This document shows, piece after piece, positions 66-61,263 of a stretch of 64,000 nt of DNA (positions are counted from its first letter, which is position 1; every line of letters starts with the position of its first letter). This stretch comes from Hormiphora californensis (lineage: Eukaryota > Animalia > Ctenophora), in the NCBI GenBank assembly GCA_020137815.1, contig CM035356.1, forward strand, positions 5,642,001 to 5,706,000, read 5' to 3'. Under the pieces are notes generated by a model. The model had not been told where the DNA came from. It searched no databases and saw only the letters and a program-made list of their open reading frames with translations. The position numbers were made by a program, and so were the translations under genes.

Positions 66-24904
<24,839 letters not shown>

Positions 24905-27860: not shown

Positions 27861-28481
27861 GACAGTCTGACACCGGTTGGCTGTGATTTATATGACCAAC
27901 GCGAAACTTAGCTTAAATAAAAACGAATCTTTCGGGAAAGGGTAATAATTTTAGTACATAGGTTGCATATCTCAAAAGACGGTTAATCAGGCGGCTCGAT
28001 TTTTTTTGACTAAACGAGTCCCAAATTGAACTTAGTACTTTTAATTACATTTGATGGCCGTTCCTTATTTGAAGATTTCAAAAGCTAACTCAATAACCAT
28101 TCCAATTTCAGAGACGGTTATATGTAACGGAAATTTGTAACCGCCTTCGTGGGAGCTTACATTGCATTTTGGCTTTGTGCCATCATTCTCAGCACACTAA
28201 AAATGTTTGTGAAGATGAAGCACTAGTATAATCTGGAAATTTGATGAAGGATCATCATACTTCCGATTTAAATTTACGATATATTGACTAACTGTCGTTC
28301 CCGACTAGACGATATATGTCATTTAAGTAACTTGAGAAATCAAAATTGATCACTTGCCCGGGGCAAATTGCCCAGTAAGTTATTGAGGTAAAAGATGTTG
28401 AATATATGCCAGGAAATTAAAACAAGTTAGTTAACCAGCTATAAACCGTTAAGCTACTACAGGTGTGTACAGTTATCTACA

Positions 28482-28536
<55 letters not shown>

Positions 28537-31134
28537 CCAAAATAAAGGAAGAGAGAAAATGGAAAAAAAGGGGAAAAGGGGGCAAGAGAGGAGGAGGTTG
28601 GGAAAAAGGGGGGAAAAAGGCGATTAAAAACGAGGAAAAAGGGTAAAAAAGCACCATGGCCCCAACGAAAAGGGGGGAAAAGGGGAGAGGGGCACTCGAT
28701 TTCTATTTTGAGGGGAGGGGCCCCCCGGAGAACCGGTTGGCCCTTTTGGTTTAAACCGGCGAGAAGGGGTTTCCAAAAAGTAGGAGGATGCGGGCGCTCG
28801 CGTTTGGGGGGAAGACCTTTTAAACCCACCGAGGGGGGTTTTAACCCGGGGAAAAGAGACGCTATTTTCAAAAGGAGGAAAAGCCATTGACCGGGAAAGA
28901 GGGGGCCCCGGGGGAAAAACCCAAAAGGAGGGGAAAAAACAGGGAGAGAGGGGGGGCGGGGAAAGGGGGGAGAAAAAAGGTTTTTTGGGGAAAAAAAAAA
29001 GGGGGAAAATAGGGGAAAGAAAAAGGGGGGGGGAAAAAACCCCCGGGGGGCGGGGGGCCCCCGGGGGGGGGGGAAAAAAGGGGGGGGGGGGGGCCCCCCC
29101 CCGGGGAGAAAACCCCCCCGGGGGGAAGGGTTGGTTGGAAAAAGCCCGGGGACCCCGAAGGGGGGCCCGGGGGTTGGGGGAAAAGGGGAGAGAAAGGAAA
29201 AGAGGGTTAACCCGGGCCCGGGAAAGAAGTAGACAACGGCCAAACCAGCGATTTCTGTTTGGAAAAAGGGAGGGGACCCTGCTGAGAAGATGAACCAGGA
29301 GAAAGACACGAGAAAGAAACGAAAGAAAACCCGACGGGAATACAGGGAAAAAATGAAAGGTAGAGAAGGCGGAGAAAAGGAAGAGAGAGAAAACGAGAGA
29401 GAGAGAAGGATTTTGGGGAGAGAGAGAAGGAGGAATTTTTCCCTTTTGGGCCTTTTCCCCCCCCCCGGGTCAAAAGGGCCCCCGGGAAAAAAGGGGCCGT
29501 TGGAAAAGGGAAAGGGAGCCCTGGGAAGCATTGTTTGGCAAAGTTAAATTTTGGAAGGATAAGTTTCAGAGTCCCATAATATTTATAATAACTAATCTAA
29601 GTAATAGAAAAAAATTTGGGGGTCCAAACACCTTTTGGATCAAGAAAAGAGAAAGGCAAAATTTGTTTAACCAATCAAACAAGACAACAAATGTATGCCC
29701 GGAAAAAGGAAATTAATTACCCCCTGAAAGGGATTTCGAGATATTGCATCCCCGATTTAACAAAATGAATATGGTTTTAAAATTTAAAAAAATTATAAAC
29801 TTGTCCAAATTTCCCTTATACCTTAAATTCTATTCGTTATTTCCGTAAAACCCTTTTCAAAAAACCCAAAAAAATTCGATTCCATGAAACCGGAACTGCA
29901 GAGACCCCCCACACGTGCCATGACAAATGAATGGAGAAGAATAAACCTGAATATAATGGTACTTTCTGGGAATTACGGCTTGCTGCTGGGAGCTTCGTTC
30001 AATATAATAACTCTAGTGGATATATAGTAAAACCGAGGAAAATACAGGTGTTAACGGACTGTAAATGCGGTGAAGACGAATAGTTGTCGAGAACTAGACG
30101 ACTGGTAATTTAGTCAGCACATGTTGTAAACATGTCCCCACGTACACAGATCTGTAGCTGTGTGTAGCACCTTTAACACATACCATGTGTGTCTAATGAT
30201 AAGGTGAGAGAAAAAGGAAAAAATATGACTAGACTAATTATTAGGAACAACTTCAAGTGAAAAACAAAACGATATAGGAACGGATTTTCCGAAAGTTTGA
30301 CTTTTGAGACCTGATATAATTTCTCTCATCCTATGGCATTCCAAAAATACCCATGATTTGACACAATTATGAGTATATGGCAAGGGAAGACAATGGTCAA
30401 ATTATGTTTAAATTAGATTTGAATGAACACAGGCAATACAAATCGGCTTAAAGAATATAAAACACATGGCGAAGAAAACAGATATATATGCGTGGACATC
30501 ATACAGATCATATTATGCAGTATAGAATATAGAGGCACACAAAAGCGGGAGTTGTCGAGCACTGATCTTTAGTTAGTGCCAACAACAACCCACAACAAAC
30601 AAAACTTAACACACAATAAACAAACCAACTTATTCTCAGGAAGGAAGATGCCAGGAAGAACGTGAGACGTTTGCAACGCCAGCTACTTTCAAGCTCAAGA
30701 CATCGAAAGAGGTAATAATCAAAATATCATGGTCACGTCAAATTATAAAGTTAATCAGATTATCATATTGAAGGTCACTTGAGTTCGTTAGCCAGACTAT
30801 CGTCTTATTTGGAGTCCGTGAGTACCATTACCATCACGTTATGTGGCACCAATTAGTTGTGCACATTACCATCACATCTTTCAAATTAGTTGTACGCATT
30901 ATCATCACATCGTTCAAATTAGTTGTACGCATTACCATCACATCGTTCAAATTAGTTGTACACATTATCATCACACCGTTCAAATTAGTTGTACACATTA
31001 TCATCACACCGTTCAAATTAGTTGTACACATTATCATCACATCCCTTCTTTTCATCTTCCTCCTCTCCCTTTAGCTTACTGATATACCTCGCCTCAGCAC
31101 TCACCTCCTTCCTCTCTCCTCCAAGACTATAATT

Positions 31135-33699
31135 CTAGTATGCCTCCCCTTCTTCCCCTTCTTCTTCTTCTTCCTCATCATTTTCCTCACCACCTTCATC
31201 ACCACCCCTTCCAGCGCCATCTTTTGGTCCTCCAACTCCTCGTCCAACTTCTATTCCTAGATATTCCTCATATAAATGCCCCTCATCCTCCTCCTCCTCT
31301 TCACTAACCAACATCTCCCCCTCACTCACCAACATCTCCTGGTCACTGCCCCCTGTTATATCGTTGCCATAGAGACGGTTAGTGATCACCGGCCCGGACA
31401 TTGGTGGTATAACCAGTGGCGGGATCCCCTCGTATCGCTGTGCAGGATGTGGGGCTCTGCGTGCCCTTCTGTACCAGAGTGCCGCACCACCTGCCATTCC
31501 AATCACAACAATCACAACAATCCCAACAATTATACCACCAAGTGTACCATTGGGAACACACCCGATAACCGGTATGGTGACACCTCCTTCACAGGATGCT
31601 GCCGGGGTATCATCCTCAACTCTCTTAATCTCACCGTCACCTTCACCATTATCACCATCTTCATCATCACCAACATCACCATCATCACCATCTTCACCAT
31701 CTTCAGCACTTTTTTGTTGCGGTGGAGGAATGTAACACGGCATATCTGGTGTGCACTCCACACACAGCCCTCTCTCTCCATTATACACCTCATCCACTTC
31801 CACGCAGCCCTCAAGACAATCTAAACTAATGTGCAGTGAGAACGGATCCTTGCTCACTCGGGTTGGGGTGTCAGTCGAGTTGTAGAGGTGACATGTGGTG
31901 TCAGTTAGTACCACTCGGGTGCAGTTACCATTCATAATGCACTCGTCCAAACACTCTGAGGGGAGTGTCACTCCATACAAAACTTCCCCCTCCTCCCCCA
32001 CCTCTCGTCCTTCCTCATAACATGGATCCTCGTAAAAGCACTCCTGTCCGCCGAGATCAGATACCATCTCCCGTTCACACTCCAAACACTCAATAGCCCC
32101 AGGGTTCTCACCAGTACGTCCCAACGGGGCACATGACACACTCTCCCAGAGTAGTGGTTGTAAAACTCTCCTGCGTCACATTGTGTGCATGTGGTGGTGC
32201 AGTTCCGCGTTTGGCTATCCTCCCCCACACAGGTATCCCCGTAGCAGTACGGTTCCGTGCACTCACGAACCCGGCTTGATTCACCCGAAATCACCATGAC
32301 TTCATCTTGGAAACACTGACACTCACTCCAATCACTCCACGGCAACCACCTCCCGTGAAGGGTAGTACAGCACTCATCGTGACAGGACTTTGGCTCAACT
32401 CCAGCACCATCACAGAGCTCACCATAACATGTTGGGGCTGGGGCCGTACAATTCCGATCCCGAATACGGTACCCCCGCCCAATAGTGTGGTCACACTTAC
32501 AATCATGCCAATCGCTCCACCCTGTCCAACCACCGTGAACCGTCTTGCAACAATCGTCATCACAGGACTTCTCCTCTCGATCCGTTCCCGTACAGTTGGC
32601 CCCATAACAGGACGGTTCGGGGGAATTGCACGACCGTATCCGTTCCTGTATTCCAGTTCCGTCACCGTGGTTACAGGTACACTCGCTCCATTCTCCCCAC
32701 TGGCTCCAAAGTCCATCTATGGTCATGCAACATTGATCATCGCACCCATTCTTTTCATCACTATCCCCGAAGCAGGCTGCTCCAAAACACGACGGCGGTG
32801 GATTTGAGCACGTCCTATTCCGGTACCGCTGCCCCGTTCCCACATCATGGTTGCACACACACGCCCCAAACTCACTCCAAGCCGCCCACGCACCCGGTAT
32901 ACTCACACAACAATCCTCATCGCACTCGACCCCCGACTCTGAGCTGGGACCATCACACTCACGTCCGTAGCAGTGAGGTGATGGATTCGTACACTCCCGA
33001 GATCTGGTCCTAACTCCCGTGCCGTCAGCGTGGTTGCACACACAATGCCAGGCGTTCCAGTCAGTCCAGCCTCCGTTGACAGTCTGGCAGCATTGATCGT
33101 CACAGTTCCCGTAGCTGACGTATTCTCCTGGACAGGTGCTACCGTGGCAGTCTGGGGCTGGGCTCGTGCAACTACGAACCCGGGACTTGGATCCTGGGGT
33201 AGGGGAGAGGGAAGGGGTTTTAGAGTAGTTTAGAGGATTTTGGAGCTAATTGTTTTGATGTGGGGTAGATGGAACATTGGAATGGATTATGGCTATCATG
33301 ACTTGTTTATCAAATATCTGATATGGCCTACTATATACTACTACTATAAACATCAAATTTACCTGTTCCAGTGGTGTATGTGCACGAACACGAACCCCAA
33401 GCACCCCAACCGCTCCACGCTCCGTGAACTGTCAGGCAACAATCATCATCACATGACACATAGATAGTATTAGATCCTCCACATTGAGCACCTCCATTTG
33501 AAGGGTACGGATTGTTACATGACCTAGATTTCCACCATGTTCCCGTTCCAGCTTCGTGGTTACAGGAACAAGATGACCAACTAGTCCAACCGCCCCAGCC
33601 ACCGTTAACCGCTCGACGACGACGACGACGACGACGCCAGCCGCTTGAAGGCGTGGCAAGAAGGAGAAAGATCACCAAAACGAAGAAAATATTTTTCAT
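31135..33699 (-). CDS. Type I membrane protein: signal peptide, poly-Arg, 7 thrombospondin type-1 repeats, Cys-rich ephrin-receptor-like (GCC2/GCC3) repeat, PAN/apple-like module, acidic linker, TM, acidic Tyr-containing tail; apparent frameshifts near 32110-32150
   Basis: Exon 1 33699-33363 (phase 1, GTAAAT donor), exon 2 33193-31135. Seven WxxWxxW..C..R.R.C..P.P...G..C.G repeats. CxxCPVGTY..GAIECLEC is restored by removing two single extra bases. ECLDECIMNGNCTRVVL...CHLY; TM GGIIVGIVVIVVIGMAGGAALWY followed by RRARR. Confidence 0.85.
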
Positions 33700-36064
33700 T
33701 TTGAGAGAAATGGGATTTTTAGATCACTACAAGCCATAGATCACTACAAGCCATACCCATATTTCATCTCAGATAACTATGTACTCAGCAAAATATTTGA
33801 AATATATACATTCCATCTTGCCTAGTGTCATGTTTAGGTGTGTCTATTGCATCTAATCACGATTGTCGATGAGCAGGAACAGCGGGATGGTAACAGCAGC
33901 AGGAGCTCAAGAAAACGACACAAAATCAAAATGTCAAGGCGAAATATGGTGGTCTTGTAACCACTGATAAGAGCTAAAACATGAATCAAAAAGTGTAAAA
34001 AAGCGTAAAAAGGTGTAGATTAGGGTAGATTAGGGTAGACCGGGGCAATTCGAACCACCGGGGAAATTTGAACCATGTGCTGCCCGTCTCTCACCTAGTT
34101 AAGCTATCATAATGACGTCATCCTATCTCCAGAAGCAAACTGCTCGTTCGAGCCTGCCCGTTGCCACTAAAAAGGCTCTAGATCTGGTTTAAGTTGGCCA
34201 ATTTCAGATTTGAAAAAACTAGCTGAAAATTTTTAAAGGTTGACAAGATACCTAAAACTTTTCGGTTTTCGTCTGATTTCGATTTGTCATTGATTTTAAG
34301 CATTTTTTCAGGATTTTTTGTCGTCTGGAAAGAAATTCGAAATATGGGGGTCTACCGATATTGTCAGCACTGGGTTTACTGGGCACACTCACTGCGACTC
34401 GCAGATCGAAATTCACGTTTCCGGTTCCCAAAGCCGGTGAAAGGACCGCACCAGCTGCCTTGAGTTGATCATATGTCTGAAAAGAAAGTCGCACAGGCCA
34501 CTGCAGAGCCCTTATTAACAAATATGTATTGAGTACAGGGACCCCCATGAGGGCAGATTCCACCTTTTGCTTCACAAACTCAGCCCACTGCTTCTTCGGA
34601 CATACTGGAGCTGCAGGATCATCTCACTCAAGTTTAATGTCCACATAATGCTTCATCGGTAACACCGGTTCTGGTTGATCCTCAATTCCACTGTTCCCAT
34701 CCTCTTTCTTATCCAGTATTTCCGATACTTTGTCCTTAACTCTCCTTTCAATGGTTGCTAGAAGATCAGTCTTCAGGCTTTCGAAGCTTTCCTTCAACAC
34801 CTCCAGGGGTTCCCTGGGGCCTCCAGGGAACCTGCATCCATCGTTGAGCTGGGGCCTCCAGGGAACCTGCATCCATCGTTGAGCTGGGGCCTCCAGGGAA
34901 CCTGCATCCATCGTTGAGCTGGGGCCTCCAGGGAACCTTTATCCATCGTTGAGCTAGTGCCGCTTTCAATCCGGGTTCTGGAGCTGTTGGGTATCAATGC
35001 ATATGCTGACGCTAGAAGACCCCACATCTGCTCTCTGGTTGGGCCACTTGGACTGTTAGGAGGAGGATTAATGTCCCCCTCAAGCAGACGATTCAGAACA
35101 GAGCTACCCTTACACTTAGAATTAATTATCGTACTCTCAAGAGCTCTATCAAACTCTTTACTATTCGTAATCCATGAAAATTATTCATCCTAAAACACCT
35201 GGCTCACACTCCTGGACAGAGATAAATCCGAACTCAAAACACTCACAGTACGTTCTTAATAAGCCCACAGAGATTCATGTAACTAAATATTAATAATAAA
35301 GATATTGAAGATTGGAAACTAAACTCTGACACGGATCAATCGATTATAAGTGGAACACTCAAATTAATTTGTTTAAGTAGTGTTGAAAAGTTTGAAATAA
35401 ACAAACAAACAAAACAACAACCAACAAACAGTTCTCTTGGGATATCCTCAACCAAGCTGGTACACCAATAAAATTGGGTTGTCGAGACATTAAAAAACAG
35501 TGGATCAATTAATGGCAAACAGAAGCAAATAGTCAAAAACAAAATATCTATCTTTAAGTTGCTTTAAAGATATGATATTATATTAGCCAAAACTACATTA
35601 TTAGATAGAAGGATACACACGTGTGCCCTCAACTCATTGTACTGAATAAAGAAAAAAGAAGAGGAACTATTTCAAGAAGATAGATTGTTATGTTCTAACC
35701 CTCCCTTTACATTTGTAAACACAGTCTAGCCAGGCAAAAAATAGATACAACCCTCTTAATATCAGTATAGATCATAAGTCATAAAGGCCTACGTGGACGT
35801 AATTCTTGATGTTTGTAGCCAGGCAAATATTAACAATCAAGAGATCGAATGAGAAGAATAAGAACAAAGAAAGGGAGGAGGAAAAGGAAAGAGAGAAAAG
35901 AAGGAGAAAGAAGAGAAGAGAGGGGAAAAAAGAGAGAGGAAAGCAACAGAGAAGAGAGAAAAGAAAGAGAGAAGGAAGAAAGAGAGGAGAAGAGGGGAGA
36001 GAGCAGAGAAAAGAGAGAGGGGAGAAGAGAAGAGGAGAGAGAGAGAGAGGAGAGAGAGAGAAAA

Positions 36065-36226: not shown

Positions 36227-36566
36227 AAGAGAAGAGAAGAGAAGAGAAAAGACAAGAGCAGGAGCAAGCAATAAAGAGATAGAGAGAGAGAGAGAGAGGA
36301 GTGAGAGAGATACGAGGAGAGGAGAGAGCTAAAAGAAGAGAGTAGGGGCCCAAGAAAAGAGCGCGAAGAAAAGAGAGAAGATAATCGAGAGAGGAAAATA
36401 GCTAGATTTGCCTTAAAGGAAGTTCTTCTAGATCCATCTCCTCTCGAAACCTTAACTCATAAAAATNNNNNNNNNNNNNNNNNNNNNNNNNNNNNNNNNN
36501 NNNNNNNNNNNNNNNNNNNNNNNNNNNNNNNNNNNNNNNNNNNNNNNNNNNNNNNNNNNNNNNNNN

Positions 36567-39983: not shown

Positions 39984-40890
39984 TGAGAGCGAGAGAGCAA
40001 TTAGAGGCAGGTATTATACGAGGTGATTCCTTGCAGAACGGAAATTAGAAGTCCAAAAGATCACCCACTACCCAGTAGTGACCATAGAAAGCTTGTGAGA
40101 AAGAGAGAGAGAGGGTGAGAGTGAGAAAGAGAGAGAGAGTGAGAGAGAGAGAGAGATGGCGAGAAATAATCTATTAAATTGGATAGGGAGAGTAGGAGAA
40201 TGCTAATCCAACATGCCAATGTGGTGTTAGTGATTGGAGAAAAACCTACGAGCTGCAAGGGCGTGATCAATGTAACAGAAAGATCAAGAGAAGTAAAAAG
40301 AGAGATAAGAATAAAGTAGGTTGTGCATCATCAGTCAAGGAAATGTCAATTTGAAGAATAATCCAACTAGGATTTACTGAGCTGCCTTTAGTAGTGGGCG
40401 CCCATTTTCACCAGAAATTATGGAACGAATCTATGCAATTGTCGTAAAACCGGTTGAAAGATAACCGAGACACTCTCGCCAAATGTCATAGCTATTTACA
40501 AGATATGGTACGACATTCAAGAAACATCTATGTCTCTATAGCCAAAAAACCGTCCAAGAAAGTATGATCACTCACCACAGTAACACTGCCTTTAACATAC
40601 AAGTGAAACATATTATATTTTGTTTTTCCTAAAAAGTTACGTTCTCTTTTGTAGCTTAGTTTGTTGAGCTTAGTAAAGAGATAAATCAACTCTATTTGAT
40701 TTATCTCTTTGCTAAGCTCAAGATAGCATTTCCTTATTTTGCTCCTTTTTTCTCTGCATCTCTCTATCTGCATCTCTGCTGTATCTCTCTATCTCCATCT
40801 CTCCTGCATCTCTCTATCTATCTTTTCATTCTCCAATACTGCTTGTAATAAGTATAGCGGTAACCACAATTTACACCAAGTAAGCCAAGA

Positions 40891-42968
40891 ACAATTAATA
40901 TGACGTGATCAACTGCTATAGCCCAACTGTTCATTCTGAGAATTCTGATACAAAGATATTATTTGCCGTACTGCTATATGAGGTAACTCCAACCCCCCAG
41001 TTTCATCTCCTTGTTTAACATGGGAGTTACCAAGGGAATCCACTGAGTTCGATTAATCTAGGCACATACCCACAGTACTATTCGAATTGGCATATCTTTA
41101 TATCAGGAATCTCGGATAGCAACAATCCTTGTGTTTTATTGCTATCTGAACAGATTAGGCGTATAGACAGGGCTCTTATTATCAGCAGTACTCACGTATC
41201 AATGGTAATGTATTAATTGCACTGAACTGCTGTAGACATCACCCACTCACTTCATACACACACAACACCCACACACATGACCAAGCCTGTACGACAGGTT
41301 ATTGATCACCGGCTGTATTACAGCACGAGAGAGCCGTCACTAGTATCGTGCAGTGATCCGAAGATCATGATAACAATTAATATGACGTGATCAACTGCTA
41401 TAGCCCAACTGTTCATTCTGAGAATTCTGATACAAAGATATTATTTGCCGTACTGCTATATGAGGTAACTCCAACCCCCCAGTTTCATCTCCTTGTTTAA
41501 CATGGGAGTTACCAAGGGAATCCACTGAGTTCGATTAATCTAGGCACATACCCACAGTACTATTCGAATTGGCATATCTTTATATCAGGAATCTCGGATA
41601 GCAACAATCCTTGTGTTTTATTGCTATCTGAACAGATTAGGCGTATAGACAGGGCTCTTATTATCAGCAGTACTCACGTATCAATGGTAATGTATTAATT
41701 GCACTGAACTGCTGTAGACATCACCCACTCACTTCATACACACACAACACCCACACACATGACCAAGCCTGTACGACAGGTTATTGATCACCGGCTGTAT
41801 TACAGCACGAGAGAGCCGTCACTAGTATCGTGCAGTGATCCGAAGATCATGATAACAATTAATATGACGTGATCTCTCGTGCTGTAATACAGCCGGTGAT
41901 CAATAACCTGTCGTACAGGCTTGGTCATGTGTGTGGGTGTTGTGTGTGTATGAAGTGAGTGGGTGATGTCTACAGCAGTTCAGTGCAATTAATACATTAC
42001 CATTGATACGTGAGTACTGCTGATAATAAGAGCCCTGTCTATACGCCTAATCTGTTCAGATAGCAATAAAACACAAGGATTGTTGCTATCCGAGATTCCT
42101 GATATAAAGATATGCCAATTCGAATAGTACTGTGGGTATGTGCCTAGATTAATCGAACTCAGTGGATTCCCTTGGTAACTCCCATGTTAAACAAGGAGAT
42201 GAAACTGGGGGGTTGGAGTTACCTCATATAGCAGTACGGCAAATAATATCTTTGTATCAGAATTCTCAGAATGAACAGTTGGGCTATAGCAGTTGATCAC
42301 GTCATATTAATTGTTATCATGATCTTCGGATCACTGCACGATACTAGTGACGGCTCTCTCGTGCTGTAATACAGCCGGTGATCAATAACCTGTCGTACAG
42401 GCTTGGTCATGTGTGTGGGTGTTGTGTGTGTATGAAGTGAGTGGGTGATGTCTACAGCAGTTCAGTGCAATTAATACATTACCATTGATACGTGAGTACT
42501 GCTGATAATAAGAGCCCTGTCTATACGCCTAATCTGTTCAGATAGCAATAAAACACAAGGATTGTTGCTATCCGAGATTCCTGATATAAAGATATGCCAA
42601 TTCGAATAGTACTGTGGGTATGTGCCTAGATTAATCGAACTCAGTGGATTCCCTTGGTAACTCCCATGTTAAACAAGGAGATGAAACTGGGGGGTTGGAG
42701 TTACCTCATATAGCAGTACGGCAAATAATATCTTTGTATCAGAATTCTCAGAATGAACAGTTGGGCTATAGCAGTTGATCACGTCATATTAATTGTTATC
42801 ATGATCTTCGGATCACTGCACGATACTAGTGACGGCTCTCTCGTGCTGTAATACAGCCGGTGATCAATAACCTGTCGTACAGGCTTGGTCATGTGTGTGG
42901 GTGTTGTGTGTGTATGAAGTGAGTGGGTGATGTCTACAGCAGTTCAGTGCAATTAATACATTACCATT
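40891..42968. mobile_element. Concatemer of a 482-bp structured non-coding unit (about 2.04 direct + 2.27 inverted copies) with a 12-bp TSD; putative retro-integrated circular RNA
   Basis: Period 482 (unit starts 40891, 41373, 41855; inverted landmarks 41879, 42361, 42843). Inversion junction at 41873-41874. TAAGCCAAGAAC at 40881-40892 and 42968-42979. Extensive internal self-complementarity; no ORF of 60 aa or more. Confidence 0.8.
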
Positions 42969-43216
42969 AAGCCAAGAACGGGTCACTCGTTTCTCTCTCT
43001 ATATCCTCTCCCCTTCTATCTATGTAAGATATCAACCCAGGAAATGGTAGTACATGGTACTCTTCAAGCCGTGATTTATTTTTGAACACAGAGGTAGAGA
43101 ACAAGCACTGTTCTTTTAAAGCCGATAAAGAAATACTGCTTTATTTATTTGGGTCCACACTCCACAGTGAGTCCACAATGTGTCTATAATGTGTTCTTTG
43201 AACACTGTTAATATCG

Positions 43217-43446
43217 GGTCAAGGGTTGTTGGCTATGGCTGGGTCCCGGGTCGAATCTCGGTTCGGGATCTAAGGCAAGCTGTCTAGTTGACCAAGCTAT
43301 AAATTGGTACAGCTTGGGCTGGATAGTCACGCTACCCTGCACAGTTCACGTAGGGCTGCCCCCCCTACTGTAAGTTTAGTAAGTACCTCGGTACGGAGTG
43401 GCATAGGGCTTAGAATCAGAGATAAGCACCGCAAGCTTATCCAGTG
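43217..43446 (+). mobile_element. Probable tRNA-derived SINE
   Basis: B-box-like GGGTCGAATCTC in a tRNA-like head; CCAAGCTATAAATTGGTAC and GAGATAAGCACCGC resemble conserved central domains of metazoan SINEs (from memory, not searched). Confidence 0.45.
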
Positions 43447-43891
43447 ATTGGGACAGATCTACCCTTTGAGTTTTGACAAGCGGTTACCCCCGAGCAGCCC
43501 GGTAAATCGTGGTCACCGGTCTTACTAAAATATCATACCCCTGAGCAGTCCGGTAAATCGCGGTCCGACCATATTTGTATAGTCAGTTATCTGTATTTTG
43601 TCACTAGCAGCTCCTCGTGCTTGTAGCGAGACTTTTACACGCTCACTTGTGCACTACTGGATCAACTGCGGTACAGTGGTACATCCGGGTTGGGGGTATA
43701 AATCTATGCGACTTTTACTTAGATAACAGATCAAAGCTCAACCGCTGTTCAGTGATGATCTAGCCGACTATAAACTGGTACTTGAATAGTTCTGCAATGT
43801 GTTGTCCCTATTCAATTCAGTGTTCTGCTATGTTTTGCCCCATTCAATTCAGTGTTACCCAATTAGTTATAACTCAATACTATATCCCAGA

Positions 43892-44188
43892 ATGAAGGTA
43901 TTCCTTGTTGCCCTGATCGCCCTCGTGGCCATGACCGCTGCCCGCCCCCATCTGGCCCTCTTCGAGCACGGACACTTCAGGGGAGGCCGCCACAACATCC
44001 ATGCACCTCAGTCATGGGTTGGAGGATTCAACGATAAGGCTTCCAGCGCCCATGCTATTCGCGGTAACTGGGACTGCTTCGAGCACGGACACTTCAGAGG
44101 CCGACGCCTGAGAATGCCCCAGGGTTCCCGCAGGCCTGGCATGCCCGGTGGATGGAACGACGTTATCTCCTCTTGCCGTCCCTTCTAA
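43892..44188 (+). CDS. Secreted single-domain beta/gamma-crystallin (98 aa), intronless CDS
   Basis: Signal peptide MKVFLVALIALVAMTAA, then two tandem halves (LFEHGHFRG..FNDKASS and CFEHGHFRG..WNDVISS) matching Greek-key F-x6-G and N-D-x-x-S-S motifs. AG acceptor 1 nt before the ATG; AATAAA at 44294. Confidence 0.9.
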   Translation: MKVFLVALIALVAMTAARPHLALFEHGHFRGGRHNIHAPQSWVGGFNDKASSAHAIRGNWDCFEHGHFRGRRLRMPQGSRRPGMPGGWNDVISSCRPF

Positions 44189-45777
44189 ATTTCATATTGC
44201 ATGTGAATTTTATTAACGAATTTGAGTTAACTAAGCTGTTTAATTGTTTTCCGTTGGGGGGGGGGGGTGTTATTAAAATTAACTAAGCCTCAAAATAAAT
44301 ATTTATGCAATACCTGCTCGTTTTCCTTACCATACCAACTACCTAGGAACTCCCTGACAAATCCATACCAACTACCTAGCAACTCCCTAACAACTCCCTG
44401 ACAACTCCATACCAACTACCTAGCAACTCCCTAACAACTCCCTGACAACTCCATACCAACTACCTAGCAACTCCCTGAATACTCCATACCAACACCATAA
44501 CAACTCCCTAGCAACTCCATACAAACTCCCTAGCAACTCTCCGGCAAAGGTGGTTGGAGGGAGGTTAGAAAACACCCGTGGAATGAAAAAAAGAAGATTA
44601 AAAGCAGCTGCTAGCAGGGCAACTGGGCAAGTGATCTCCGCCAGAAATATATACGCAATACCGAACAACAAACACGACTCGAGATGCTCGTCTTACAGAA
44701 GCTTGTATGACATTTCAAGAGGGTGTCTATATCTATTATAATACATGCATGCCTCTATATCAAGAAGTAAACAACATGTACACACATTACTGGTGAATAC
44801 CACGTGTCTCGGCGTCTCGCTATCTGTCCCCCCTCTCTCTCACTCATGCAATGTGTTCACATAAATATGTTCGGTAGACAATGAAAAATATATTAAATTA
44901 CATAGTATATATATAATTCGGATTTAAAACACACTCAGTAGCCGCGGCAATGGTCGAGGGAAGGGTTTAATAAAAAGTTTCTTTAGAAAATATCCTGTGA
45001 AATGAAAAAGTATTAAAAGTTATGTTTATAACACGCCCTGCATGTAGTTGCCCTGGTTACTACATTAGTTGTCCTGGTTACTACATTATCATGAACAGCA
45101 ATTTAAATCAAGAACATCACAAACAAAGATTGGAAAAGCATTGACGACTATTTTAATTTCGAAACCGTCGTGTGATTTGTTTCCTGCAATAAAATCATTG
45201 TCTCAGTTGTCCATAAACTACTATCAACTATTTTAATTTGTTTTTCAATGATCCTTATTCATGACAACCTTGTTTTGACACAATGACACATTGTTTCAGA
45301 GCAGTATAAGAGACAAAGAGCTAAACAGTCCCCTGCAGCACAAGATACATCGGTATAACACAACCGCGGTGGTGACATTACATTGTCAATTAAAAACACC
45401 GCAAATTTAATTTTAACTGCACGGGCAAAACGAGATACGGTTCTATTTTTAATCAACAACAGAGCAAAACGGCAAAAAATAAAAGATTCTCAGACATTAT
45501 AAGATGTATCCATCTAAAATCTAATACACTGCAACTGGAAACACAGCTTACCGACATAGTTACCCATACCCGGGCGGTTTGCGGTTTGCTCAGCGTTTGG
45601 CTAAGTGTGCTGGAAGCACACAGTGAACGTGCTGCAGCTGTTATAGCAGTTGGCACATGCGTCTAAATGTAGCACAATGGAGATTAGTGCTTGTACTACT
45701 GCTGCAGCAGTGGCAACTGCAGCAGACAGCTCGGGTAATGGGCGTGCATTCACCTCGCTATGAAGAACAGAGAGAGA

Positions 45778-59387: not shown

Positions 59388-61263
59388 TCACGTGTAGGTA
59401 TACCTGAGGTACAGAGCCAGTCCTATCATCATGCTCACAACACTCATACCCCCGAGTATCAGGGCGCCCACCCAATAGGTAAAATACTCCAACATGAACC
59501 CAGCGAGGCCCTGTCCCGCGAAACAGAACGCCAGGAACCCAATCAGCCACGTTCCTCCAATGAACATCTCTTGGTCCGCTGTAATGGCCCCGGAATGTCG
59601 TATCTGGACCTTTTTCATGGCGGATAGTGTTGCTATGGTGATGAGGGGATCTCCAAACCCGGCCAAGAATGCAGCCGGGTAGGCAGTGATGGGGGAGAGC
59701 CGGTACAGGGGCCGGATATACTCCACAGGGAACATTAACAGGACACCAACCCCCACACAGAGACTCCCCAAGAACATCTGGGAGTAGGGTGAGATCTTGG
59801 GTCCCTTGAGGAGGAAGGCTGAGGTGGCACTACCAACCACCATCCCAACACTAACGGTAGAGAGGACCAGACCACCCTGTGAAATGGGCACGTGGAAGAA
59901 TATGTTTAGGTAGGGGGTGATGGTAATTTGGAGGTACCCGTACACAATATTAACCAGCATGGTACTCAATAACGGTAGAGTAATCCACCAGGAGAGTTTA
60001 GAGCTGTGCCGCTTCTTCCCTATTGGGACTGTTCCATAGTCGTTAGTCTTGAGCAGCATGGGTTCCTTGAGGAGTTCTGAAGAGTCCCCGGTCAGGCTCT
60101 CCTCGCTGGATGAAGCCGCTATCCCACTATCATGGTCACTCTCGCTCTCCTCAGAGCAACTGGCGCTGTGGGAGGGACAATCTGGGATGAAGAAGTAGGT
60201 CATTGTGATGGGCAGGATGAGCATCGCCGTTACTAGGTAGAAGGGAGCGTTGTACCCGAAGTAGTCGTACAAGGCACTGCCCATGGCTGCACCCAGACCG
60301 TGTCCCGCGTAGACACCAAGTTGCGTCATGGAGTTGACCGAGTCGAAATCACGGGTGAACTGACTCCGGCAGAGGTCAATGAGAAGGAGACACCGGGGGT
60401 AACCAAGGAAACCGTTATAGATTCTCAGGGCGATATTGAGAGTGACCAATAGGGACACGTCTTCGGTTATGTACCTGGAAAGAAAGTGAAGATTAAAAAA
60501 TACTTCCTGTGTTGATCATGTGCAGTCGGACACCGATTTACCGGACCCCGGATTTACCGGGAGGTTATACTTAATAGTAGTTGACCCCAGTGGCCGATAT
60601 ACCAGGCAAAACCATTTTTCCCAAGCATCATGTCATGTTAATACCTGTATGTTAGTATACATCCCAGGGGGTATAGAAGGTTGAGGGTCTGGTCCCATTG
60701 CAGGAGGGTCTTTGGAGTGAACCGTCTTAGCAGAAACTCTGTTGTGCGGGTCATGTAGGCCAAGAGAAACCCTGCAAACATACTCCCCCCGATCAGACCA
60801 TAGTACTTTGGTTCAACGTTTTTTTCCGAGAAACTGTCTGCCAGAAATCCGTACCTGTTTGGTGGGCGAGGAGGGGGTAAAGTAAACATAAAGAGATAGG
60901 TCATGGTGTGTCATATTCTAACCATTCAGATTAAATGCCACATATATAGTCAAACGTATCCAGATAGGCTGACAGAAACACAAGTGACAGAAAGGACCTT
61001 GACAGAAAGGACCTTGACAGAAAGGACCTTGACAGAAAGGACCTTAACAAAAAGGACCTTGACAGAAAGGACCTCAACAAAAAGGACTACGACAGAAAGG
61101 ACCTTGGCAGAAAGGACCATGACAGAAAGGACCTTGACAGAAAAGACCATGACAGAAAAGATTACCTGACAGCTGCAGTGAGGGACCCGCTGAAGCTGAT
61201 AACGAGGATCGTTATAAAGGACATCCAGTCTCTCCAGTTGTATCTTTGAGAGTATGTTACCAT
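59388..61263 (-). CDS. Major facilitator superfamily transporter, SLC18B1/vesicular amine transporter-like
   Basis: Exons 61263-61166, 60854-60645, 60474-59388, all with phase-2 junctions. About 12 hydrophobic segments, GLGAAMGSALYDYFGYNAPF motif, and a long acidic/Ser-rich central loop. Confidence 0.82.
60986..61160. repeat. 15-bp minisatellite TGACAGAAAGGACCT in MFS intron 1
   Basis: About 11 copies next to the donor site. Confidence 0.9.

Follow-up and report, generated by a model that had tools for sequence, protein, structure and literature searches.

Animal non-LTR retrozymes are tandem, structured, non-coding units measuring a few hundred bp, with a GC content below 50%, a type I hammerhead and a target-site duplication of more than 4 bp, for which a circular intermediate copied to multimers and a Penelope partner have been proposed (PMC7229834; bioRxiv 10.64898/2026.07.22.740005); the reverse transcription of retrozyme circles into multimers is a published model (PMC7761336). 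The hammerhead motif is the starting point of retrozyme searches (bioRxiv 10.64898/2026.07.22.740005), so that circle-based elements without a hammerhead stay invisible to them. Insertions of Penelope and Poseidon are tandem and inverted, with duplications of 8-10 bp and no poly(A) (PMC3846280), and a Penelope protein was shown to cleave both strands of the target, to extend each of them and to begin copying at an internal site of the RNA (PMC11167929). Naiad Penelope-like elements are present in ctenophores and are without canonical hammerheads (PMC8557442). Further points of likeness are offered by the twin and dual priming described for L1 (PMC2837659), by pseudogenes derived from circular RNAs (PMC4897178) and by viroids and viroid-like RNAs (PMC11888127). 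(All of these sources except PMC11167929 are cited from excerpts.)

The locus compared here is a two-armed insertion at positions 40881-42979 of a 64,000-nt stretch of the genome of the ctenophore Hormiphora californensis (assembly GCA_020137815.1, contig CM035356.1), the whole stretch being referred to as the window. Within it, two inverted arms consist of identical 482-bp units, 2.04 units in the left arm and 2.27 in the right. The insertion shares all of the retrozyme features listed above (its duplication measuring 8-12 bp, its circular intermediate and Penelope partner being likewise proposed) except the type I hammerhead, which was not found in the ctenophore unit; in addition, the excerpts of PMC7229834 and bioRxiv 10.64898/2026.07.22.740005 contain no account of two-armed inverted insertions, and the two papers have 0 mentions of ctenophores. 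A reading of the DNA made earlier without database searches (the sequence-only reading) had called the element viroid- or retrozyme-like. Membership among the non-LTR retrozymes is not upheld because the defining hammerhead is missing, and no known ribozyme was found; the element works like an animal non-LTR retrozyme without being a member of that group.

Regarding the Penelope-like elements, the locus shows the combination by which Penelope derivatives are recognised, namely a tandem and inverted insertion, a duplication of about 8-10 bp and no poly(A), in common with Penelope and Poseidon. The internal start of reverse transcription and the extension of both target strands by the Penelope protein (PMC11167929) recur in the inferred mechanism, and the ctenophore host and the lack of a canonical hammerhead are shared with the Naiads. 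In contrast to Penelope-like elements as they appear in the excerpts, the unit has no ORF, complete and identical units are present more than twice in each arm, and neither a palindrome at the inversion nor a fixed 30-40-bp tail was seen. The architecture is less singular than the sequence-only reading implied, since the excerpts of PMC3846280 and PMC7761336 hold precedents in Penelope inserts and in the retrozyme multimer model. Two inverted cDNAs from two target ends, bounded by a duplication and joined through a short overlap, are also known from L1 (excerpts of PMC2837659), but the present locus is without poly(A) and its arms overlap fully and exceed unit length, whereas L1 leaves an internal deletion. 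Pseudogenes derived from circular RNAs cross the circle junction and are without poly(A) as well (excerpts of PMC4897178); the ctenophore unit differs in having no parent gene or exons, in being multimeric and in having diverged subfamilies of its own. Viroids and viroid-like RNAs are similarly small, non-coding, structured and apparently circular (excerpts of PMC11888127), whereas the ctenophore units form an inherited DNA family with no ribozyme and no evidence of RNA-RNA replication or infectivity. A viroid proper was rejected: the unit is non-coding, as a viroid is, but it is present in the genomic DNA of 3/3 samples, and viroids have no DNA form.

The combination of no known ribozyme and no Pol III head, a ctenophore host, an apparent empty site and a closed loop in an RNA-labelled library is distinctive. 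Among the papers listed in the literature searches, none links ctenophores to mobile elements with circular RNA; the one mention of ctenophores there is in PMC8557442 (excerpts), whose list of ctenophore Naiads may, like published circular-RNA catalogues, bear on novelty.

Structure of the insertion and its target site

The features of the insertion are listed below, the unit being numbered so that U1 is window position 40890. Both arms were delimited by periodicity and a repeat finder.

40890..41874, plus strand: left arm, 985 nt, 2.04 periods, from U1 round to U21
41873..42968, minus strand: right arm, 1096 nt, 2.27 periods, reverse complement of U312 round to U443
41873..41874, no strand: inversion junction, a 2-nt overlap at which U21 (left arm) meets U443 (right arm)
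40881..40892, plus strand: left copy of the target-site duplication (8-12 bp), which shares its final 3 nt with the beginning of the left arm
42968..42979, plus strand: target-site duplication, right copy; its first base doubles as the first base of the right arm
40890..41371, plus strand: one 482-nt unit, 41.5% GC, non-coding, no known ribozyme

Both arms are exactly 482-periodic with 0 mismatches and no sub-period, which bears out the earlier description of identical units (about 2.04, then about 2.27 inverted) in circularly permuted arms; only the start of the left arm had to be moved, from 40891 to 40890. The junction overlaps (left end 3 nt, inversion 2 nt, right end 1 nt) likewise agree with the microhomologies that had been read by eye. 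On the two strands of the window together, the flanking 12-mer has no occurrence other than those at 40881 and 42968; a repeat that is anchored in this way on either side would arise by chance with a probability of about 8e-8 if it is 12 nt long and about 2e-5 if it is 8 nt long. Because arm and duplication overlap at the ends, the duplication measures 12 bp if the overlapping bases paired as primers and no less than 8 bp if they did not. Of the 12-bp duplication claimed in the sequence-only reading the 12-mer on both sides therefore stands, the duplication itself being 8-12 bp long. That reading had also named fixed ends as the mark of a satellite or a DNA transposon. Neither fixed termini nor terminal inverted repeats were found, the family having no common start or end place, and satellite DNA or a DNA transposon with fixed ends was ruled out; displayed loose ends, described below, map across the unit.

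The right arm is 171 nt longer than the left arm could have templated, and in the opposite direction the surplus is 311 nt. As neither arm can be contained in the other, a simple fold-back copy is excluded, and self-priming by fold-back was rejected on these arm lengths. The strands that continue the two target 3' ends share unit polarity, and both were therefore copied from the complement; two primings on one template polarity are needed. The earlier proposal that both target ends primed on a template of the same polarity, the reverse complement of the left arm, is thus in line with arm polarity and with the arm-length excess.

Regarding the flanks, a 285-nt contig of run X4 (sample S2; depth 128.9) covers 42968-43148 and continues into 95 nt of non-unit sequence, and the left flank 40833-40874 has the same depth of 128.9 as the right-flank contig. 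To judge from these matching values, and not from displayed letters, a single X4 contig apparently spans the empty site, the allele that the sequence-only reading had proposed to look for in other individuals. The same pattern was seen in X5 (sample S3; right flank only), where a 247-nt contig leaves 96 nt over. In X2 (sample S1, which may be the source) position 42968 is exactly where the flank contig starts, and this is what the presence of both a filled and an empty allele would produce. The insertion appears to be polymorphic among individuals and young, and from its apparent polymorphism the family is probably still active.

Several other sequence features lie close to the insertion. A motif resembling a splice donor starts one base before the left duplication (40880-40884) and a pyrimidine tract follows the right one (42990-43028), so that the empty site may lie in a short plus-strand intron. 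A 58-nt palindrome with 26-nt arms (96% complementary) is located at 40664-40721, 160 nt to the left of the insertion. A second multi-copy family, rich in variants, adjoins the insertion at 43150-43450 (X2, X4 and X5, with depth reaching about 1e4-3e4) and is followed by 30-nt direct repeats at 43485 and 43536.

The repeat family and the closed loop in run X12

Twenty-four runs were listed as candidates, which include no RNA run of the organism itself; contigs were placed on the locus for 7/24, and X13 and X17-X20 (small shares) were left out. The unit or part of it was present in 20/24 listed runs, including DNA of the organism and several marine metagenomes, and it is multi-copy in the genomic DNA of 3/3 organism samples listed. 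Summed contig depth, which is no copy number according to the warning of the tool, reached about 1e4-9e5 over the unit, compared with 129-378 over the unique flank (X2, X4 and X5; one unit plus right flank). Mean depth per contig at four variant sites was 32-141 times that of the flank, a ratio read as roughly tens to low hundreds of units. In X4, 876 records fall on the unit stretch, 159/876 of them only partly; about 150 records per DNA run lie partly on the unit. A pattern scan of metagenomes yielded 21 loci, none of them (0/21) with similarity past 39 nt, and was taken as chance.

Sites at which many molecules start or end were not found anywhere across the unit in the analysed runs. There were 613 loose ends, of which 24 were displayed; apart from adapters or variants among them, these are spread over the unit. 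Clusters of displayed ends near the left start of the locus (4 contigs at U482 in X2, 5 at U480 in X5) are a hint of a preferred start within what is a selection of rows. Diverged relatives of the unit have about 79-93% identity. Head-to-tail variants with internal deletions were found as well: U156-U376, where 221 nt are replaced by 17 nt (X4, X5), and U301-U332, where 32 nt are replaced by 1 nt and the basal stem U294-300/U337-343 is kept (X5, depth 882.7). Opposite-strand joints at other unit positions made up 2/11 of those listed for one unit plus right flank and 3/6 in a second placement, one being common to both; they comprise U235/U76 (X1, X2 and X4), U74/U12 (X1 and X4) and one each in X15 and X16. 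The geometry could be read in three other joints, two of which are as at the locus (X1 record 6, X16 record 10) and one opposite (X15, depth 2). The expectation of further copies with different permutation points was borne out in these runs by the multi-copy family, its scattered ends and the other inversion joints.

All four unit copies of the locus share the letter at U85 and at U157, whereas another letter accounts for 69-91% of summed contig depth at these sites (X2, X4 and X5; four run-site pairs). Minority letters in all four copies favour the view that one type of template molecule was copied repeatedly, and not a mixed array. They also bear on an assembly artefact, in which the array or the inversion would not exist as such. 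Its case is that the inversion joint of the locus, U21/U443, is absent among the 11 joints listed, from runs including the probable source sample, that the window has a 100-N gap (36467-36566), and that consensus calling could homogenise units. Polishing would, however, favour majority letters, and with the duplication at both ends, the apparent empty site in X4 and the branch at 42968 in X2 an artefact is extremely improbable.

Run X12 is a marine library with the record text METAGENOMIC RNA-Seq RANDOM, for which RNA is a guess of the tool. The whole unit is covered at a depth of about 900; 9/9 contigs lie wholly in the unit and 0/9 exit onto other sequence, a 468-nt contig (depth 911.9) crosses from 41371 to 40890, and the flank of the locus has no cover. 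The X12 content resembles a single closed sequence, about 485 nt long, that dominates over others. This closed pattern, set against the 876 records of X4 (159 partial), makes X12 unlike bulk genomic DNA. Since the head-to-tail joint also stands in the DNA run X4, the joint alone proves nothing, and the contigs carry information on neither strand nor covalent closure; the loop could stem from circular RNA, from circular DNA that was amplified, or from a uniform array of great length. Six of the seven listed X12 substitutions against the unit are common alleles of the genomic family in X4. In X15 and X16, on record as RNA, unit traces only were seen (depth about 2-10), and X21 and X22 (RNA, same sample as the DNA run X10) had next to no unit words, which is no proof of absence. 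Of the circular RNA that had been expected in RNA-seq, the closed loop at a depth of about 900 in an RNA-labelled library stands, with RNA there being a guess and the other RNA runs holding traces.

Two templates other than a circular RNA were weighed against these data. The first is a linear transcript spanning several units of a homogeneous tandem array, inserted by two-ended retrotransposition with no circle. It agrees with the lack of a circularisation signal in the unit, with the acceptance of unprocessed RNA by the Penelope protein in vitro (PMC11167929) and with the occurrence of the head-to-tail joint in DNA. However, to leave nine X12 contigs at about 900 without entry or exit, the array would need great length and uniformity, and the roughly 150 partial records per DNA run and the copy ratios of 32-141 fit many short loci better; a linear template is unlikely.

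The second is a DNA circle of small size, either eccDNA or single-stranded, on which rolling-circle synthesis would have run while a staggered break was repaired. Break repair also leaves junction overlaps of 1-3 nt, with which those of the locus are compatible, and the library of X12 could consist of amplified DNA. On the other hand, a single-stranded template is required for repeated inversions of one geometry, the clean duplication of 8-12 bp points to an endonuclease of an element, the fold of the unit is better than that of shuffles, and there is no exact match in it to the CRESS-type nonanucleotide. A DNA circle is accordingly quite unlikely to have been the template.

Coding capacity, ribozymes and fold of the unit

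The longest stop-free frame of the unit is 65 aa and no frame is open round the circle, in agreement with the earlier statement that the block has no ORF. Eight frames of 34-65 aa gave no Pfam match above cut-off. The 65-aa frame contains a word resembling a reverse transcriptase motif and was discarded as a remnant of such an enzyme, having no Pfam match above cut-off and no Atlas hit.

Rfam was searched up to an E-value of 10 with two full units on both strands. There were six matches, none of them a ribozyme: a match to mir-187 (E 1.6e-4, 31 bits against a threshold of 58 bits) was set aside as the fold-back stem at the inversion, the remaining five had E-values of 0.21-3.1, and the whole window had none at gathering score. 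Descriptors for the core motifs of hammerhead, HDV-like, twister and hairpin ribozymes were also searched. No hammerhead core with up to one mismatch (0, both strands) was found, which matches the by-eye result of the sequence-only reading, and cores with two mismatches or with the 3-8 pair swapped (for 3-8 covariation see PMC4209133) occurred at shuffle level only. An HDV-like loop look-alike on the minus strand proved on inspection to be without the first P1 pair and the J4/2 motif, and the descriptor search gave no twister or hairpin core in the unit. Regarding promoters, there is no Pol III B box even with one mismatch and one 11-mer resembling an A box; ARAGORN found no tRNA head at default settings and giant-intron noise only when relaxed. 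With neither Pol III A and B boxes nor a tRNA head in the unit, a tRNA-derived SINE was ruled out.

The unit is predicted to fold strongly on both polarities. Linear folds gave z values of -4.0 and -5.3, and circular folds against 40 shuffles gave about -4.2 (plus) and about -4.3 (minus), with branched structures in which 60% and 68% of the nucleotides are paired. The predicted structural features are as follows.

40913..41170, no strand: predicted long imperfect hairpin, U24-U281, on both polarities (circular folds)
41183..41232, no strand: predicted stem-loop, U294-U343, with an interior that varies or is deleted among family members
41225..41346, no strand: AC-rich unpaired tract (U344-U388) with small hairpins, the segment most often kept by long diverged relatives

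Of the pairs with a probability >0.5 (129 on the plus and 126 on the minus strand), 72 are common to the two polarities. The segment 41225..41346 is a candidate cis element, as inferred from its retention. No strand preference emerged from the fold (8 G-U pairs plus, 13 minus), and 11 variant sites looked up for strand choice point both ways. The inferred cDNA 3' ends U21 and U443 (window 40910 and 41814) border the same predicted plus-strand multiloop.

A non-coding unit structured on both polarities, together with one dominant closed sequence in X12, is what would be expected of a viroid-like RNA that replicates autonomously in ctenophores and has left its endogenised footprints as the genomic copies. 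Against it, the family is present in the DNA of 3/3 organism samples with relatives at 79-93%, as for an inherited element, and the listed X12 substitutions are mostly (6/7) common genomic alleles in X4. Furthermore, neither strand has a ribozyme, the fold is branched with 60-68% paired, 482 nt lies above the viroid range of 220-450 nt (PMC11888127, excerpts), and the unit had 0 matches in viral contigs and no match in phage records. Such an RNA is decidedly improbable, and nothing supports the infectious or autonomous viroid-like agent that the sequence-only reading had considered.

The copies could also be pseudogenes of a back-spliced host circular RNA from one master locus, for which there is a mouse precedent without poly(A) (PMC4897178, excerpts) and to which two donor-like motifs on the minus strand of the unit would be suited. 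This origin is very improbable, given the strong fold, the lack of a coding frame or protein match, and the separate master that each diverged or internally deleted head-to-tail variant would need.

Proposed mechanism and genomic surroundings

With moderate confidence, the locus is read as a non-autonomous element that passes through a circular RNA intermediate and was inserted by target-primed reverse transcription from two ends, likely by a Penelope-type enzyme. Tandem genomic copies would be transcribed and processed to unit-length circles, either by an unrecognised ribozyme or by a host nuclease and ligase. An endonuclease would cut the target with a stagger of 8-12 nt, and each target 3' end would anneal over 1-3 nt to an internal site in the RNA (U1-3, U312), no poly(A) being involved. 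A borrowed reverse transcriptase, probably from a Penelope-like element, would then extend both ends, each priming likely running more than two rounds along the small circular RNA. Both cDNAs would be of left-arm polarity and their template the reverse complement of the left arm, be it one circle primed twice or two identical circles. The two cDNAs would finally join through 2 nt, followed by fill-in. A Penelope-type partner is probable in view of published Penelope biochemistry and insertion structure; among the ORFs of the window, 0/9 scanned match a reverse transcriptase.

A wider and doubtful proposal is that ctenophores have abundant circular RNAs of 482-485 nt, closed by a new ribozyme class or by a ribozyme-free host pathway, perhaps copied from RNA to RNA, and rewritten into DNA by two-ended rolling-circle reverse transcription; these would be a hammerhead-free counterpart of the retrozymes, matched to the hammerhead-free Naiads. 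If the X12 loop is RNA, the family offers a direct test of circle formation in a tandem element that has no known ribozyme, for which the genome already carries a unit dimer usable in a cleavage assay, and of the idea that enzymes of the Penelope type, primed at both target ends, copy a circle in a rolling manner. Circular-RNA mobile elements would thereby extend to ctenophores.

Elsewhere in the window, a rhodopsin-family receptor is encoded in two frames at 7711-8815, a protein with thrombospondin type 1 repeats at 31968-33723, a beta/gamma-crystallin-domain protein with a signal-peptide-like start at 43790-44188, and an MFS-type transporter at 59388-60515 (the gene at 59391-60512 has 10 relatives, of which the best, and the sole one with a species name, is from Mnemiopsis leidyi with 63% identity). 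The stretch 28473-29596 is rich in homopolymers and resembles low-quality sequence. A minisatellite with an 11-bp period and a 44-bp higher-order period is located at 44328-44539.
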